DNA of 39,670 nt from a virus, in UHGV virus genome UHGV-0120812; one strand, given 5' to 3'. Numbering within the stretch: the stretch's first letter is position 1; every line of letters begins with the position of its first letter. Made by a program: the position numbers and the translations under genes. The notes under the pieces are model-generated. The model was not told the DNA's origin. It searched no databases and saw only the letters and a program-made list of their open reading frames with translations. Of this stretch, positions 13,703 through 38,046 are shown one piece after another.

Positions 13703-13909
13703 GTGGTTGAGTTGATTTTTTCTGCATTGAGGATTCTCGGTGCTATGTGGATGGTGGCGACGTTCATTGTGGTTGCCAGCAGTTTTGTCCGGCTGGTAGG
13801 CGAAGGTAAAGACCTGGTTGGTGTGCTTTTCGGTAGCATTTTCCTGTGGGTGATTATCGGTGTTGCGCCTGTCGCTGTAGCAAAAATGGCGTGGCGTTTT
13901 GTGAGTTGA
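13703..13909 (+). CDS. Hypothetical small membrane protein (two predicted TM helices)
   Basis: 68 aa GTG-start ORF, highly hydrophobic (MWMVATFIVVASSF...; FLWVIIGVAPVAVA). Confidence 0.4.
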   Translation: MVELIFSALRILGAMWMVATFIVVASSFVRLVGEGKDLVGVLFGSIFLWVIIGVAPVAVAKMAWRFVS

Positions 13910-31066: not shown

Positions 31067-32473
31067 ATGGCTACTTGGCAAGGAACAAATGGCGGATTGT
31101 TGGCTGGTATCGGTGGTGTCAACTCAAACGCTCCGAGCGTAAATGACATCGGCAACACGCTTCAGCTTATCAGGCAGAACAATGATATTGAGCGTTCAGG
31201 CGCTAACAATGTTGGGCTGACAGCTTTGCAAGGTCTTTCTGGTATTGCGGGGGTGTTTCAGCAGGAAAAGCAGGCTCAGCGGCAGAAAGAATTTCAGCAG
31301 GCGTACGCTAATGCTTATGCGTCTGGTGATCGCGGTGCTTTGCGTAAGTTGGCTACTCAATATCCAGACCAGATTGAATCCGTTCGTAAAGGCATGGGAT
31401 TCATTGATGAAGAGCAGCGTAATTCTATCGGCACCTTAGCGGCTGGCGCACGCCTTGCGTCATCGTCTCCAGAAGCAATGCAATCATGGCTGCAAAACAA
31501 CGCCAAGGAACTGACTCGCGTCGGTGTTGACCCTAACAGCGTTGCTCAGATGTATCAGCAGAATCCTTCAGGATTTGGTGAGTTTGTTGATCACCTTGGA
31601 ATGGCTGCTCTTGGTCCGATTGATTACTTCAATGTTCAGGACAAGATGGCTGGTCGTGAGATTGACCGAGGCGGGCTGGCAGAGACAATCCGCAGCAATC
31701 AGGCTGGTGAAGCACTTCAGGCGAGAGGGCAAAACCTTTCCTATCAGTCAGCAATGACTGGGCACAATATCGCAGCACAACGCTTGGCTCTGGATCAGCA
31801 AGAGTTCGGGTTTAAGATGCAGCAAGCGCAGGAAAAGGCTCAGCAGTTGATTAGCGAAGCACCTAAGCTGTCAGTAAACATGGAAAAAGGCATCGAGACG
31901 GCTGTAAACAATGCCACAGCATCATCAAACTCAGCCAATTCCATGAGTGCGCTTGCTCAACAGTTCAGAGCAGAAAAACCAACGACCGGCTTGTTCGGTA
32001 ACGCACAGAACATGTTCGCAAAACTTACCGGAAGCGATACGACATTGCGTGATTTGCGCATTCGCCAAAATGCCCTTGTTAACAGTCAGGTTCTTAAATT
32101 CCTACCTCCCGGCCCAGCAACGGATAAAGACGTTGAGATCGTTCGACAGGGTGCGCCAACTGACATGGATAACCCTGAGACGGTCGCAAGATGGCTTGAT
32201 GCAATGGCAAACCTTGAGCGACGAAACGCGCAGTTTAATGAGTTTAAAGCTGAGTGGATGAGCGCGAATGGCAACCCTGGACAATCGCGTAATGGCGGTC
32301 AGATATTGGGGTTGGATGTTAAAAAAGGTGAATCATTGGGGAGTGCCGTTAAGCGGTATATGTCAATGAATACTGACGCAGCGCCAGCACAAGATTCGAC
32401 ACCTTCAGGAGAACCACGGAATCAGGTTGGATCATATACCTCAAAATCAGGCATTCAATTTACGGTGGAATGA
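31067..32473 (+). CDS. Ejection protein (P22 gp20-like)
   Basis: 468 aa ORF at the gp20 position and of similar length. Confidence 0.8.
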
Positions 32474-34317
32474 TGAAAGTAACTGCAAACGGTAAGACAT
32501 TTACCTTTCCTGATGGTACGAGCACCGAAGATATTGGCACCGCCATTGATGAGTATTTTGCTGGTCAGGCTGTTCAGCAACAAACAGTTAATCAGGCCAA
32601 TAATGCACCAACACGGGAAGAACCATCATTGATGCAACAAGCTGGCGATTGGCTCACTGGTGGTCAAAGTGCAGGGCAAATTGCGGAACAGGCTGGTCGT
32701 GGTCTGGTAAACATACCATTTGACGTATTGCAGGGCGGCGCAAGTCTGATTAATGCAATCAGCCAGGGGCTTGGTGGCCCCAAGGTTTTGGACGATGTCT
32801 ATCGTCCAGTCGATCGACCAACAGACCCTTATGCGCAAGCTGGAGAAACAATTGGCGGGTATTTAGTTCCAGGAGTTGGAACGGCAGGAAGCATGGCTAT
32901 TGGATCACTGGCAGAGGCCGCAAATCAGAAAGGCGATTTCGCACAAAATGCAGCTAAAAATGCCGGAGTTAACCTTGCCGCTCAGGGGGTTCTTTCCGCA
33001 GCAGCAAAGGGAATATGGCGTGGAATAACGGCTATAAAAGGTGATATTGCGCCAGAAGTGGCGAAGAAAATTGCCACATCAGAATCGATGGGCGTGACAC
33101 CAATGACATCTGATGTTATCCCGCCGAAAAATGCTTTCACTCGCGGCCTAACTCAGGATGCCGAGGGGGCTTTGCTCGGGACAGGCTCAAAGCGAGCGGA
33201 GCAATATGCAACGCGTAGTAAGCTGGTAAGTAATTATTTTGACCGTTTTGGTGAGTACAACCCTGATGATGTGGTGAAATCTCTTACCACCACGTTAAGG
33301 GGGCGGAAGGATGCCGCTGGCGCTGTTATCAATGACGTCACCAATAAAATGGGTAATGCCGCAGTTGATACCACAAATACCATGAATGCTCTGAATACAG
33401 CGATCGCAAGACAGGAACGGCTTGGGACGTCTGCCAATCAAAGCCTGCTTACATCCTTGCGTAACCTACGTGAAGAATTAGCAAACCCTGCAACTGATTT
33501 GGATGTTACGTTTGATCTCTTGCGTCAGCACAGAACAGCATTTAGATCTAATGTTCAGGGAGATGCTATGGTCTTCCCAAACCAGGCAAAAGCAGCTACC
33601 AATATGGTAGAGAATGCAATGTCAAAAGATCTTCGTAACGCAGTTGCAAAAAACCTCGGTGCATCAGACGCAGCAAAATACCTTAAAGCAAATTCCGATT
33701 ATGCAAACGTTTATAATAAGGTGCTTAATAAAAACATTGCTAACAAGCTCAACAAGGCAAGCAGTGAAGCCAGTCCTGAACTTATAAATACCGTTGTATT
33801 AAGCAGAAAACCATCTGACGTGAAACGAATCTGGAGCGCATTGGATAATAAAGGGAAAGATGCTATGCGTGCAGCTTATGTCAGCAAAATAGCGGAAAAG
33901 GCCGGTGACTCTCCAGCCAAGTTCATCACTGAAGTTAATAAGCTGAAATCTCAGTCAGGCGGTGAAATTTACAACACTATTTTTTCTGGAAAGCACATGA
34001 AAGAGCTTGATTCTCTTCATGAAGTTCTACAGCAAACAGCAAGGTCAGACACCGCAAATGTAGTAACTCAGACGGGGCAATCGCAAGCCAACAGGATAAG
34101 GACGATTGGCGCAACTGCGACTCTTGGCGTATCAATGGGGCTTGAGGCTGGTTTCGGTGCAATGATGCGCTTGTATGAGTCAAAAGCAGCAAGGAATGCT
34201 CTCTTACGTTTGGCAAACACCAAAGCAGGAACACCAGCCTATGAAAGAGCGCTAAATAATGCTGCAAATGCGATACGCCCTATACTTTCAAGCCAAATTA
34301 CAGCAGAACAGCAATAA
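32470..34317 (+). CDS. Ejection protein (P22 gp16-like)
   Basis: 615 aa ORF at the gp16 position and of similar length. Confidence 0.8.
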
Positions 34318-34330
34318 AAATAAGATATAA

Positions 34331-34816
34331 CTATCTGATATTACTGCTACTGTTGCATGTTACCGTGTTTCCAAATCCTGAATTGCAGTTTGTATATGTG
34401 TCAACGCGTGTTGGGTAAGGTTGAGTTATAACAGGCTGGCGCGCTTTTTGCTCGATCGCTTGCATTGTGTTTACAGCCTGATAATTCAATAAAGCCTGCT
34501 GGAATGCTTGGCTTTGTGCTATTTGTTGTGCTTGTTCTTGGCTTTGTAATTGAACATAAAGATTCTGAAGTTCAAGTCTTGCCTGTGTGTCACTTATCTT
34601 GCCTTCATCGACACCTTGCCCGAGCATCTTCGCAGCAAGGACATACAGCTTAGGTGTTGGTGCTGATGCCATGCGAGAGTCGTTCTTCAAGCTGGCATCA
34701 AGGCAATTAGCCATATCGCTAAGCTTTGGATAGCGTTGCTCGCAACTTGCCTGATAGTCGCTTACTTTTGCGCACCCAGCCAGCAGAAGCGGGATAATTA
34801 ACAGTGATTTTTTCAT
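34331..34816 (-). CDS. Lipoprotein, accessory gene (candidate superinfection-exclusion or conversion factor)
   Basis: 161 aa from MKKSLLIIPLLLAGC (signal peptide plus LAGC lipobox); Q-rich helical middle; convergent with gp16. Confidence 0.65.
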   Translation of the reverse strand: MKKSLLIIPLLLAGCAKVSDYQASCEQRYPKLSDMANCLDASLKNDSRMASAPTPKLYVLAAKMLGQGVDEGKISDTQARLELQNLYVQLQSQEQAQQIAQSQAFQQALLNYQAVNTMQAIEQKARQPVITQPYPTRVDTYTNCNSGFGNTVTCNSSSNIR

Positions 34817-34850
34817 ATAATTAACTCTCCTTAGTTTTGCGCAGGATACC

Positions 34851-35216
34851 ATGAAAAAAGTTAACATTGGAAACGTACCAAAGATGCTCGTTCCGCTCTT
34901 TGAGAGCGGTACAATTGTGTTTTGTAGAGACTTTCCAGAATGGCAACGCCTGCATCAAAAACTTGGCGTTGACGTGCATGACTCGGACGCCAACGGAGCG
35001 TCTCATACAATGAGTAGCGAGAATGGTGTTTTGCATGTGATAGGCGTGTTCAATGGCAAACTATCTACTATTGCCCATGAGTGCGCTCACATGGCATTCG
35101 ATATCTGCTCAAGGGTAGGTGTTGATGTTGAACCAGGAAGAGCCAACGAGACTTACTGCTACTTAATGAGCAGGCTTGTTGAGTTCTGCGAGCGACATAT
35201 CAAAAAGCCGGAGTGA
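34851..35216 (+). CDS. Hypothetical protein with HExxH motif (possible small zinc metallopeptidase)
   Basis: 121 aa; AHECAHMAFD contains HExxH; divergent from the lipoprotein gene across a 34-bp gap. Confidence 0.55.
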   Translation: MKKVNIGNVPKMLVPLFESGTIVFCRDFPEWQRLHQKLGVDVHDSDANGASHTMSSENGVLHVIGVFNGKLSTIAHECAHMAFDICSRVGVDVEPGRANETYCYLMSRLVEFCERHIKKPE

Positions 35217-35229
35217 CCCGGCTTGATTA

Positions 35230-35409
35230 TTACTTTTTGCTGTCTGGAGTTCGCTTATCCAATACCCAGCCATGACCTGGCTTTGTTGTTGGTGGAAGCC
35301 TTTCGTTGTCCTTGACGGTTGCAAAATTGTCTTTCTTACCGCCGCGTGGGCCAACTTCTTGGTATATTCCGCCGTTTTTTCCTGTGTTTTCACCTGGTTT
35401 TTTCGCCAT
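35230..35409 (-). CDS. Hypothetical small Gly/Lys-rich protein
   Basis: 59 aa MAKKPGENTGKNGGIYQEVGPRGGKKDNFATVKDNERLPPTTKPGHGWVLDKRTPDSKK; GAGGT RBS 7 nt upstream; hairpin plus T-run downstream. Confidence 0.45.
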   Translation of the reverse strand: MAKKPGENTGKNGGIYQEVGPRGGKKDNFATVKDNERLPPTTKPGHGWVLDKRTPDSKK

Positions 35410-35508
35410 GATATACCTCAACATACACCCGTTATTGGGCGATTAAATATTGATCTCATTTTATAAGTAGTCAATATGGCCCAGGTAAATGCAAAAATTA
35501 ACCCACCT

Positions 35509-35760
35509 TCAGGTGGGTTTTTTGTACAAATCCTTCAGCGTATCAAACACCATCTTCTTAACAAGCTCTGACTGCTCATCAGCGATGCGTTCCGCATCGT
35601 CTCGATAGCCTGAAATTTTGGATGGCTTTGATACAGCATCAGTCACTATCTGAACTAATTCTGAATTAAGAGAGCGGCCATTGGATTTGGCTCGCTGTTT
35701 TAGTTTTTCCTTTAATTCGTAAGGTAGCCGCAGATTAAATTGCGGGTCATCTCTTCCCAT
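35509..35760 (-). CDS. mnt: Mnt repressor (ribbon-helix-helix, Arc/MetJ family)
   Basis: 83 aa; DDPQFNLRLPYELKEKLKQRAKSNGRSLNSEL...YRDDAERIADEQSELVKKMVFDTLKDLYKK resembles P22 Mnt. Confidence 0.85.
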   Translation of the reverse strand: MGRDDPQFNLRLPYELKEKLKQRAKSNGRSLNSELVQIVTDAVSKPSKISGYRDDAERIADEQSELVKKMVFDTLKDLYKKPT

Positions 35761-35820
35761 TCTTGATGCCTCGCTTTTGTGAGTGGATCGGCATCTTATT
35801 ATCTGCTGATTGCATCCTCA

Positions 35821-35841
35821 ATAAGACCACGGTGGTCGTAT
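35821..35841. promoter_or_regulatory. Mnt-operator-like palindrome
   Basis: ATAAGACCACGGTGGTCGTAT, a near-perfect 21-bp palindrome with the CACGGTG centre, between mnt and the tailspike gene. Confidence 0.65.
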
Positions 35842-35907
35842 TTTTTTGATTAATAATGCATCACTGCGGCAATGCTGCGGCGATTCCTTGTATCTGGAGC
35901 AAATTAA

Positions 35908-38046
35908 ATGACAGACATTACAGCCAATGTTGTAGTGAGCATGCCTTCGCAACTCTTCACTATGGCGCGTTCTTTTAAAGCCGTAGCTAATGGCAAAATT
36001 TATATCGGTAAAATTGACACTGACCCGGTAAATCCTGATAACCAGATTCAGGTCTATGTTGAGAACGAAGATGGTTCTCACGTTCCTGTTGCACAGCCAA
36101 TCGTCATCAATGCCGCTGGGTATCCAGTATATAACGGACAGATTGCCAAGTTCGTAACTGTGCAAGGCCATTCTATGGCTGTTTATGATGCGTATGGTAC
36201 ACAGCAGTTCTATTTTCCGAATGTGCTGAAGTATGACCCTGATCAACTACGGCAGCAATTAGAAGACCCGGATGGAGCTAAAAAATATCCTGAATTGCAG
36301 ATATCTCGGTGGAGGGACGATTGTGATGTAAGAGGGTGGGGGGCAAAAGGCGATGGTATAACAGATGATACATCTGCATTGATCTTGGCTGCAGAATATG
36401 CACGAGAATCATCCAGAACATTACGAGCGGAAGGTAATTTTATTATTACGGAGACATTAAATCTTCGTAATGTCAGCCTCGAAATGACCAATGCTGTTTT
36501 TACCATATCCCACTCAGGAATAGGGGTATTGCTTGGCGGGAATGCATCAAACCCTAACAACCCAAGACAAAACTTCGGAACGATTATCAGAAATTCTGGT
36601 ATTTCATCTGAAACGACACCGGATATTCGTATTATCGGGGCAAAAGGGCAGCATATAAACATTGAGCGTTGCGACTACTTACAGTTATATGCAAATTATA
36701 ATGCTTCGGTGGCATCGACGGATTATTCAATAGCATACTCAACCTTTAACCTGAAAAAGGTCGATACAATTCATTTTCTTGGAGTTGAGAAAGGATGGAT
36801 AAATGAAAACTATTTTTATCTGAATCGTACGAATAATATCATTTTCGCTGATAATCCATATCATCATAACCACAATAAGTTTTATGGTGGAACTATGGAG
36901 GGGGCAGGTAAAATTGATATTCAAAGAGGTGATAACAATTACTTCTACGGGTTTCGTTTTGAACGATATCCATCATCCCCAACTAACCAACAGTTGATAA
37001 TTAACTTTGGTGAATATACGTGGAATAACTCAATTGAAGCTACATGGCTTTCATCTCCTGCGTATACAAATGAGCCATACAATCCATCGCCTTACACTTA
37101 TGTCGAGGTAACTGATAATGGCAAGGGGAATGCAGTATTTCATATTCAGGAAAATATATCCGATGAAGTAACATTGTTTTCTTTAAATGCTAACACCCCA
37201 TTTATATCCAGTGCTAACAATGGAGAAGTTGGTGCATTAGCATATCAAACAGATGTTGATGGTTTATATAATATCCGTCACCTGGTTTCTTCTAAGTTTG
37301 CTTTTATGCGGAATTTTGGGTTGTTATGGGAATCTGGAGATGTACCAGTAAGAAATGGTGATATGTTTACATTCTCAGCAGATACGGCATCGTTTCGCAT
37401 TTACCTGTATGCATTAGATAGAGATGGGAATGTCATAACCTCACAAACAGAAGCCATAACTTCTTCTATGCAATGGGATTCTGCCAACCATAGGTATGTC
37501 ACTGCTGTTAATATTTCTTCCATTAAGATCAGGATTAATAATGAAGGGGTTCCAGTTAGTGCAATTCGTTTAGCTGTGTATTCTGGTGGTAATGTAGTGA
37601 ATACTGCATTTTCATGGCTATGCTTTACTGGTAGATATTACAAAAATAGCACATCCTTACCAAGGAAAAGTAAAAATACTTTTACTTTAAAACAAGGGAA
37701 AGCACTTACTTATTATAGTGATACTGATATTAGTATGGCTAACATTGGTTCAGGAATTACCTGTTATAAAACCGATTTATCTGAACTCAAAATTAATCTT
37801 GTAAGGGGCAGGTATGTAGTGAAATCGATTTCAGGTAGTGAAATATATGTATACCAAGGAACAATCACTTATTACCCTCCACTCAGTGATATCAAATTGG
37901 TATATACGGATGGGATTGAAAATAAATTATTAGATGTGCAAAGCATCTCTTCAGGAAAGATTACTCTTGCAGATACAGTACCATCAGCTATATCTGCAGG
38001 CGATTTTGTAGATGTTATTGTTACAAAGACGAAATCTATTTTATGA
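35908..38046 (+). CDS. Tailspike: P22-type head-binding domain plus divergent beta-helix-like receptor-binding domain (candidate polysaccharide depolymerase)
   Basis: 712 aa; first ~113 residues [43 protein letters not shown]...NVLKYDPDQ match P22/HK620 tailspike N-termini; remainder unrelated to P22 and AT-rich. Confidence 0.9.

Follow-up and report, generated by a model that had tools for sequence, protein, structure and literature searches.

Gene content of the interval

The window analyzed here, i.e., the whole 39,670-nucleotide stretch of the virus genome UHGV-0120812, is a P22-like (Lederbergvirus-type) Escherichia coli prophage, the late region of which matches E. coli phages JEP4, CUS-3, Kapi1, and others at about 94–96%. 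Between the gene 16 homologue, which encodes the third ejection protein (32470-34317, +), and the repressor gene mnt, it carries a lipoprotein gene, a gene for an HExxH protein that is the P22/HK620 hkcC, and a homologue of the P22 gene orf59a, which encodes a 59-amino-acid (aa) protein (Table 1). This interval is the "ant moron" of P22-like phages, which comprises sieA, hkcC, orf59a, mnt, arc, and ant in P22 (PMC2629481). In P22-like phages, hkcC and 59a have been listed as genes with function unknown (PMC2629481, PMC4837284). We consider it on balance probable that the region is a mosaic ant moron made of three independently exchangeable units, namely a lipoprotein acting at the envelope of the lysogen, the late zincin hkcC, and the moron orf59a.

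Table 1. Features of the three-gene interval and of mnt, with positions in the window
Feature	Position	Strand	Remarks
Lipoprotein precursor gene ("sieA slot" cassette)	34331-34816	-	ATG 34814-34816, stop 34331-34333; 161 aa
Upstream region of the slot gene	34817-34901	-	shared Shine-Dalgarno GGAG (plus-strand CTCC ~34828-34831); overlaps the first 51 nt of hkcC
hkcC homologue	34851-35216	+	predicted cytoplasmic minimal zincin-like protein, 121 aa; HECAH at residues 76-80
GC-rich hairpin between the convergent genes (P22 "t mnt")	35205-35224	.	followed by UUUUU on the minus strand; terminator annotation in the P22-pbi record
orf59a homologue	35230-35409	-	59-aa YjzC-like protein; 97% DNA identity to P22; PHROG 3202
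Small hairpin in the orf59a 5' untranslated region	35439-35428	-	CCC AATAAC GGG
Promoter-like element of orf59a	35474-35446	-	TTGACT, 17 nt, AATATT
Second bidirectional hairpin, over the mnt stop codon	35500-35519	.	strong plus-strand terminator (U6), weaker on minus
mnt	35509-35760	-	Arc/Mnt ribbon-helix-helix repressor; Pfam Arc 2.8e-22, Repressor_Mnt 2.2e-18

An earlier note on this DNA, made from its letters, had described three open reading frames (ORFs) in which the lipoprotein and HExxH genes are divergent and the HExxH and 59-aa genes convergent, and this layout is correct. The three ORFs are confirmed by the ORF list as well as by the gene calls of the NCBI Prokaryotic Genome Annotation Pipeline, which predicts each of them in an E. 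coli chromosome with 100% identity here. Over positions 34200-35900, the identity is 100% with a chromosomal prophage of E. coli IR53017 and 99.9% with a prophage of an ST131 strain. Homologues were found for the lipoprotein (90), hkcC (32, or 517 clusters by profile search), and the 59-aa ORF (108), and in comparisons of all three genes with relatives in other genera, synonymous sites were saturated, with nonsynonymous divergence (dN) of 0.12-0.34. Because of these many homologues and the low dN at saturated synonymous sites, all three can be regarded as true protein-coding genes under purifying selection. Near-identity with P22 extends over 34823-35607, where hkcC, orf59a, and the 3' part of mnt show 97% DNA identity, and identity with ST160/SE1 (95%) runs through mnt.

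None of the three proteins has a significant match in Pfam, NCBIfam, or PADLOC; the sub-threshold Pfam-type matches are lantibiotic models for hkcC and YjzC for orf59a, and in PHROGs all three fall into families of unknown function. The interval is thus an ordinary, already known variable region holding three uncharacterized genes. New here are a cassette slot that is precise to the start codon and has at least 13 alternatives, with the lipoprotein as its commonest occupant in our sample, an HExxH+E signature that is invariant in the large hkcC family, which Pfam does not cover, and the conserved promoter and terminator of orf59a.

A cassette slot at the position of sieA

The earlier note had equated the interval with that between gene 16 and immI of P22, which carries sieA, and the lipoprotein gene sits exactly at the sieA position (PMC2629481). 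Near-identity with P22 starts at about 34827, between the lipoprotein start codon and the Shine-Dalgarno sequence, and continues with one mismatch up to 34901, so that P22 sieA and the lipoprotein use an identical Shine-Dalgarno sequence. At the opposite end, the homology shared with phages Gally and vB_EcoP-720R6, two carriers of this lipoprotein, starts at 34332, one base past the first base of the stop codon. Because the P22 homology starts before the start codon and the Gally homology at the stop codon, the exchanged unit can be read as essentially the ORF alone, from start codon to stop codon, and the lipoprotein gene as an exact replacement for P22 sieA. In Gally, the lipoprotein gene adjoins a 139-aa gene that is not an hkcC relative.

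The DNA upstream of the slot gene is shared as well. According to a previous study, sieA together with 85 bp of upstream DNA, placed at galK, conferred full exclusion of P22, and the promoter therein was termed putative (PMC10883804). These 85 bp are kept here with one mismatch, and PsieA, annotated at 13861-13891 in the P22-pbi record, corresponds to about 34850-34880 of the window, within the 5' end of hkcC. Each cassette would therefore be a gene replaced with start- and stop-codon precision, while the Shine-Dalgarno sequence and the putative sieA promoter DNA ahead of it stay fixed.

The slot was surveyed in 79 IMG/VR contigs with 99-100% protein identity in hkcC. There, the gap between gene 16 and hkcC is occupied by at least 13 unrelated genes on the minus strand, with cassettes of 62-164 aa. 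Among them are genes for the lipoprotein (18 contigs), SieA (13), and a secreted protein of 129 aa (12), and nearly all of the occupants bear a signal peptide or an N-terminal membrane anchor. Of ten slot representatives, nine have their start codon 6 nt from the common Shine-Dalgarno sequence, and Pfam identifies one of the ten (YobH-like). Examples of such cassettes come from loci L015-L094 (L026 3581-3970, L018, L038, L032, L019, L017, L070, L072, and L092). At locus L014 (209-562, -), in a P22-like prophage, the sieA slot upstream of the hkcC homologue is filled by a 117-aa signal-peptide protein with a Pfam Rap1a match, and since the Rap1a family is named for immunity to type VI secretion effectors, the slot may carry protection against bacterial competitors too.

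The lipoprotein and its possible roles

The lipoprotein begins with MKKSLLIIPLLLAGC and has the layout of a lipoprotein signal peptide, MKK-SLLIIPLL-LAGC15, in which a charged N-terminus and a hydrophobic stretch precede the lipobox L-A-G-C15. The LAGC lipobox pointed out in the earlier note was borne out by an alignment of 23 homologues, which shows no variation at G14, C15, and A16 and keeps L12 in at least 90%, and the protein is a predicted signal peptidase II substrate. A 178-aa reading from 34867 was discarded, being merely the longest ORF, while the homologues and the Shine-Dalgarno sequence favor the 161-aa start. According to the +2 rule, a residue other than Asp at position +2 predicts sorting to the outer membrane. 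The +2 residue is the invariant Ala16 and the +3 residue is Lys, and because of the conserved lipobox together with this non-Asp residue, the most likely destination of the protein is the outer membrane, on its periplasmic face.

The mature part (146 residues) consists of a helical domain with C25 and C38, a Gln-rich helix, a Pro-containing linker, and a C-terminal hairpin, which contains two conserved cysteines and occurs in three sequence types varying by homologue group. The invariant cysteines in the 23-homologue alignment are C15, C25, C38, and C154. Besides the lipobox cysteine, there are four conserved cysteines, namely C25, C38, and the two of the hairpin, and in an exported protein these suggest two disulfides. 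Its only PHROG match is phrog_6067, annotated as function unknown, and no Pfam family (at E<=1), NCBIfam family, or PADLOC model was matched; PDB sequence and profile searches also gave nothing useful for the lipoprotein or for the YjzC-like profile discussed below. Only five phage records carry the lipoprotein, four of them without a functional name and one as "putative lipoprotein". Serratia and Morganella have homologues in P22-like prophages, again at this position. One family member from Cronobacter dublinensis (P0055) is named "general secretion pathway protein GspK" at NCBI, apparently a mis-annotation, given that no Pfam domain is detected in the lipoprotein family.

The exclusion or envelope role that the earlier note assigned to all three genes stands for the lipoprotein only. 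Since the lipoprotein gene lies in the sieA position, behind the sieA Shine-Dalgarno sequence and upstream DNA, a prophage-expressed exclusion or envelope function is reasonable for it. The lipoprotein would be made in the lysogen and would protect it at the envelope, as the neighboring alternatives of the slot are presumed to do. Acting from the side of the outer membrane, it would most likely keep incoming phages from delivering their DNA or from using a receptor. It could interfere with the ejection-protein conduit at its outer-membrane end or, in the way that T5 Llp acts on FhuA (PMC9586334), target an outer-membrane receptor from within the periplasm. Our best guess is hence superinfection exclusion at the outer membrane, a guess made from position and analogy rather than from homology.

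Alternatively, the lipoprotein might be a conversion factor for host fitness or virulence, providing, instead of exclusion, resistance to serum or to envelope stress on the model of lambda Bor/Iss or TraT. Such a role would suit a prophage gene for an outer-membrane lipoprotein that is widespread in Enterobacterales, including clinical E. coli, and the Rap1a-family occupant, with its type VI secretion immunity name, implies that the slot is not restricted to anti-phage functions. However, neither Pfam nor PHROGs revealed any similarity to the Bor, Iss, or TraT families, and both characterized occupants of the equivalent position exclude phages, i.e., SieA (PMC10883804) and, in BTP1, the STnc6030 RNA, an antisense transcript that is highly expressed in lysogens and excludes BTP1 (PMC7067206). 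We therefore regard a conversion factor as doubtful.

hkcC encodes a minimal zincin-like protein

The earlier note also suggested that the HExxH protein could be a minimal metallopeptidase or regulator, a reading that loss of the motif in homologues would refute. No such loss was seen, as the motif is invariant in 20 close and 65 diverse relatives. In the 20 close homologues, S-T-x-A-H-E-C-A-H-x-A-F-D-I-C and A-N-E-T are conserved, and a profile search of 1.84 billion representatives extended the family to 517 clusters at 50% identity, mostly of 110-140 residues. Among the 65 diverse relatives, with identity down to 22%, the sole invariant columns are G49, H76, E77, H80, and E100, and this set corresponds to the gluzincin signature HExxH+E, which would provide two His ligands, a catalytic Glu, and a Glu ligand. 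In thermolysin, H146 and E166 are 20 residues apart, which is also the spacing between H80 and E100.

The AlphaFold2 (AF2) model of the hkcC product (predicted local distance difference test, pLDDT, 89.3; predicted template modeling score, pTM, 0.83) has the topology strand-strand-helix-strand-strand-helix-helix, in which the last strand leads into the helix carrying HExxH (71-88), and E100 starts another helix (100-116). The weak structural and profile matches that align most residues are gluzincins, SPRTN, and astacins; the best Foldseek match is the SPRTN protease domain (E 0.2, weak), and the profile gives sub-threshold, HExxH-level matches among PDB sequences to myroilysin, BMP1/tolloid, and astacins at the strand-HExxH region. 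The Pfam SprT-like family is touched by two of the 65 relatives at 1e-4, and the protein of the window has no Pfam or NCBIfam peptidase match. What stands of the metallopeptidase proposal is thus the conserved motif with its invariant Glu 20 residues downstream, and what is missing is a match to any curated peptidase. By motif and predicted topology, the hkcC product is zincin-like and belongs to no curated family.

Minimal zincins of about 105-110 residues are active proteases. It is nevertheless conceivable that HExxH+E in the hkcC product binds a metal for structure or regulation only and that the protein is not a hydrolase, in line with its very small size (121 aa) and the lack of a significant structural match to peptidases. 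This is unlikely in our view, since the general-base E77 is invariant together with three putative ligands while nearly all else varies, a pattern expected for catalysis, and since these minimal zincins, as well as Wss1/Spartan, which have been classed with the minigluzincins (PMC4559962), are active proteases. We prefer to describe the hkcC product as a soluble minimal zincin, presumably a zinc-dependent peptidase made late in lytic growth, which would act on some host or phage protein.

The genomic context of hkcC bears on when it is made. About 34 nt separate it from the divergent slot gene, and because of this short upstream spacer and the variable slot-gene sequence, a conserved promoter of its own is unlikely. 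In siphovirus-type prophages of Klebsiella, Rosenbergiella, and Xenorhabdus, its relatives lie between tail-tube/chaperone and tape-measure genes. The relative in Proteus adjoins an immI-like region, that in a Pasteurellaceae prophage follows replication genes, those in Kluyvera and Citrobacter separate the lysis genes from terminase, and that in Moraxella is found among head-tail genes. In every context examined, hkcC is on the strand of its flanking genes. In Klebsiella, an intrinsic terminator lies directly upstream of the hkcC relative, which fits expression only under late antitermination. These contexts argue against both a lysogenic-conversion role and an ImmA-like anti-repressor role. 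An anti-repressor protease of the ImmA/IrrE (M78) type was considered and rejected, as no PF06114 match was found and most contexts of the family, in which the neighbors are tail, lysis, terminase, or replication genes, have no adjacent repressor; the repressor near hkcC here is of the Arc/Mnt ribbon-helix-helix type and is missing from most hkcC contexts. As well, the envelope-modifying lysogenic-conversion role implied by the earlier note does not fit a protein that carries no signal peptide and is encoded on the late-operon strand.

orf59a is a moron with conserved signals

The third gene was described in the earlier note as a 59-aa ORF with a ribosome-binding site and its own terminator, and both are present, namely GAGG 7 nt upstream of the ATG and the hairpin at 35205-35224 with its U-run. 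The hairpin (-12.6 kcal/mol, z -2.4 on the minus strand), the left arm of which encodes the end of hkcC (KPE, stop), can be assigned as the terminator of the orf59a transcript. A promoter-like element and a small hairpin in the 5' untranslated region (5'-UTR) precede the gene, and the same promoter element was found 5' of the 59-aa ORF in siphovirus-type tail-gene contexts of both Xenorhabdus and Klebsiella, which have no mnt. In an alignment of seven loci from several genera and phage types, TTGA is invariant, as are positions A50, T52, A53, and T55 of the -10 hexamer, and the 5'-UTR and terminator hairpins are both retained with changes on both arms. The 5'-UTR hairpin stems across these loci read CCC/GGG, CTC/GAG, TGCTC/GAGCA, and CTGCA/TGCAG, and this hairpin may be an mRNA-stabilizing stem-loop or an operator. 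Having, by its sequence, a promoter and a terminator of its own on the strand opposite to the late operon, orf59a can be classed as a moron. Given the conserved promoter, and the fact that the second hairpin (35500-35519) is weaker on the minus strand, transcription could start at this promoter and possibly also reach the gene by read-through from Pmnt. The unit would thus consist of a sigma-70-type promoter, a 5' hairpin, a Shine-Dalgarno sequence, a YjzC-like product, and an intrinsic terminator. It would be read in the direction opposite to the late operon, with expression probable in the lysogen.

The product matches Pfam YjzC (PF14168) with 19.4 bits (E 1.3e-3), which is below the gathering cut-off of 25, and the search reaches 11 PF14168-annotated proteins (E 1.4e-6 to 5e-4), to which it aligns with 46-51% identity and with P5, G6, G14, E18, G20, R22-G24, and P39-T41 invariant. 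UniRef names its close relatives "YjzC family protein", and no solved structure for YjzC-like proteins was found in PDB searches.

YjzC-like genes also occur alone in other mobile elements. In Salmonella bongori prophages (L106/L107, 3001-3180 and flanks), a lone YjzC-like gene lies beside genes with GmrSD_N and HEPN domains and lysis genes. The GmrSD_N and HEPN domain families are typically linked to anti-phage defense, and this locus may be an accessory or defense hotspot.

Three units, a pair, or one module

The linkage between hkcC and orf59a raises the question of whether the two are a functional pair, i.e., a late protease and a small lysogen-expressed partner (inhibitor, substrate, or regulator), to which the convergent layout with a shared terminator would give expression at opposite phases of the life cycle. 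In all six loci with hkcC relatives at least 46% identical, covering five genera and both podovirus and siphovirus contexts, the two genes are convergent with stop codons 5-16 nt apart, and the last hkcC codons lie inside the orf59a terminator stem. Against a pair, other DNA takes the place of orf59a-mnt immediately past the hairpin (~35238) in 10 of 80 viral contigs whose hkcC is near-identical, none of the seven hkcC relatives at about 40% identity has a YjzC-like neighbor, and YjzC-like genes stand alone elsewhere, as described above. We thus treat a functional pair as a tentative possibility to be kept in view. An obligatory coupling was rejected because of the ten contigs with orf59a-mnt replaced and the distant relatives without orf59a, so that the linkage of orf59a to hkcC can be described as frequent rather than obligatory. 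In one of the loci with the replacement (L057, 4380-6892), hkcC is followed by a convergent gene for a two-helix membrane protein of 74 aa, an ORF of 178 aa, and another mnt-arc-ant set.

A bolder proposal would be that hkcC founds a large, unannotated family of phage zincins of about 120 residues, which are made late and cleave a host protein such as an immune sensor or envelope factor, and which in one lineage are paired with a lysogen-expressed YjzC-like antagonist or partner. This we consider quite unlikely; if true, the two genes would form a protease/anti-protease cassette with opposite life-cycle expression, moving as a block between podovirus and siphovirus late operons.

The earlier note had gathered the three genes into a single superinfection-exclusion or envelope-modifying module. 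The genes are adjacent, the interval includes the position of the known exclusion gene of P22, and resistance is reported to be conferred by a high-copy plasmid with sieA, orf59a, and mnt (cited in PMC10883804). However, SieA suffices alone for exclusion (PMC10883804), and hkcC and orf59a coexist with SieA in P22. Moreover, the slot gene is exchanged independently of hkcC, varying while hkcC remains 99-100% identical, the hkcC/orf59a pair is found in siphovirus-type tail-gene clusters without a slot gene or mnt, the lipoprotein is the sole gene between gene 16 and the tailspike gene in Morganella prophages, and the hkcC product is predicted to be cytoplasmic and is encoded on the late strand. 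A joint action of all three genes is therefore very unlikely.

Several observations weigh against the mosaic of three independent units as we have set it out. The linkage of hkcC and orf59a is conserved over 57-63% protein identity, and because of this the second and third units may not be functionally independent. For the lipoprotein, library and structure searches revealed no resemblance to any known exclusion protein, defense model, or solved structure, and in its AF2 model residues 18-96 are helical (pLDDT ~80) and the remainder is poor. A consensus promoter scan did not pick up PsieA, and in the related prophage Kapi1, mnt expression was not detected (PMC12922286). In the literature, no functional studies of YjzC, hkcC, or orf59a were found, and homologues with a tested function are lacking for all three genes.

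mnt and the tailspike gene

The second hairpin (-16.8 kcal/mol, z -3.95 on the plus strand), which is unannotated in P22-pbi, would halt non-antiterminated rightward transcription before the Pant/tailspike region. As in ST160/ST64T, mnt is present without arc, ant, or sar, and the tailspike gene begins at 35908, so that the Mnt-controlled promoter region (35761-35907) directly faces it. Because of this absence and orientation, Mnt may here regulate the tailspike rather than an antirepressor. The tailspike has 712 aa in the window (35908-38046) and is annotated with 663 aa in E. coli IR53017 (L010, 4709-6700), and its receptor-binding part has evidently been exchanged downstream of a shared head-binding domain.

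Comparison with known systems

The interval resembles the ant moron of P22, HK620, and epsilon34 in its position between gene 16 and the tailspike gene, in hkcC, orf59a, and mnt, in the t mnt hairpin, and in the DNA upstream of sieA. Unlike in P22, an unrelated lipoprotein gene replaces sieA, and arc, ant, and sar are absent. The site of the P22 exclusion gene would accordingly be a precise plug-in slot, in which one ribosome-binding site and the putative sieA promoter DNA serve at least 13 unrelated proteins, among which SieA is the only one with a known function. Current understanding stays unchanged until a phenotype is shown for these genes.

For hkcC, the closest likeness is to the minimal gluzincins and to SprT/Wss1/Spartan, with which it shares a size of about 110-120 residues and, in the predicted model, a central HExxH helix following a beta-strand and a putative acidic third ligand on the next helix. 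As a gene of "function unknown" in P22 for two decades, hkcC gains from its invariant HExxH+E a testable zinc-protease hypothesis. Similarly, orf59a is like YjzC (PF14168) in its length of about 60 residues and in the pattern PG...G.Y.E.GPRGG...LPPT, while it differs in belonging to a proteobacterial, phage-borne branch with its own promoter and terminator, and in a Pfam score below the cut-off.

The lipoprotein can be compared with two kinds of exclusion proteins. The Cor lipoproteins of phi80, N15, and HK022 are outer-membrane lipoproteins that block FhuA-dependent phages. Together with T5 Llp (PMC9586334), they offer a plausible working model for the lipoprotein, although no homology to Llp or Cor was detected in Pfam or PHROGs, the lipoprotein is larger (146 mature residues) and has a Gln-rich helix, and P22-like phages use the O-antigen rather than FhuA. 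With P22 SieA it shares the slot, the Shine-Dalgarno sequence, the upstream DNA, the orientation, and a predicted envelope location. However, SieA is a polytopic inner-membrane protein with an FxRYPxEAxxFNK motif (PMC10883804), while the lipoprotein belongs to a different PHROG and has no sequence similarity to SieA, no transmembrane helices in its mature part, and no such motif. The lipoprotein is thus a candidate for a new block of podovirus DNA delivery on the outer-membrane side, which would complement the inner-membrane block by SieA.

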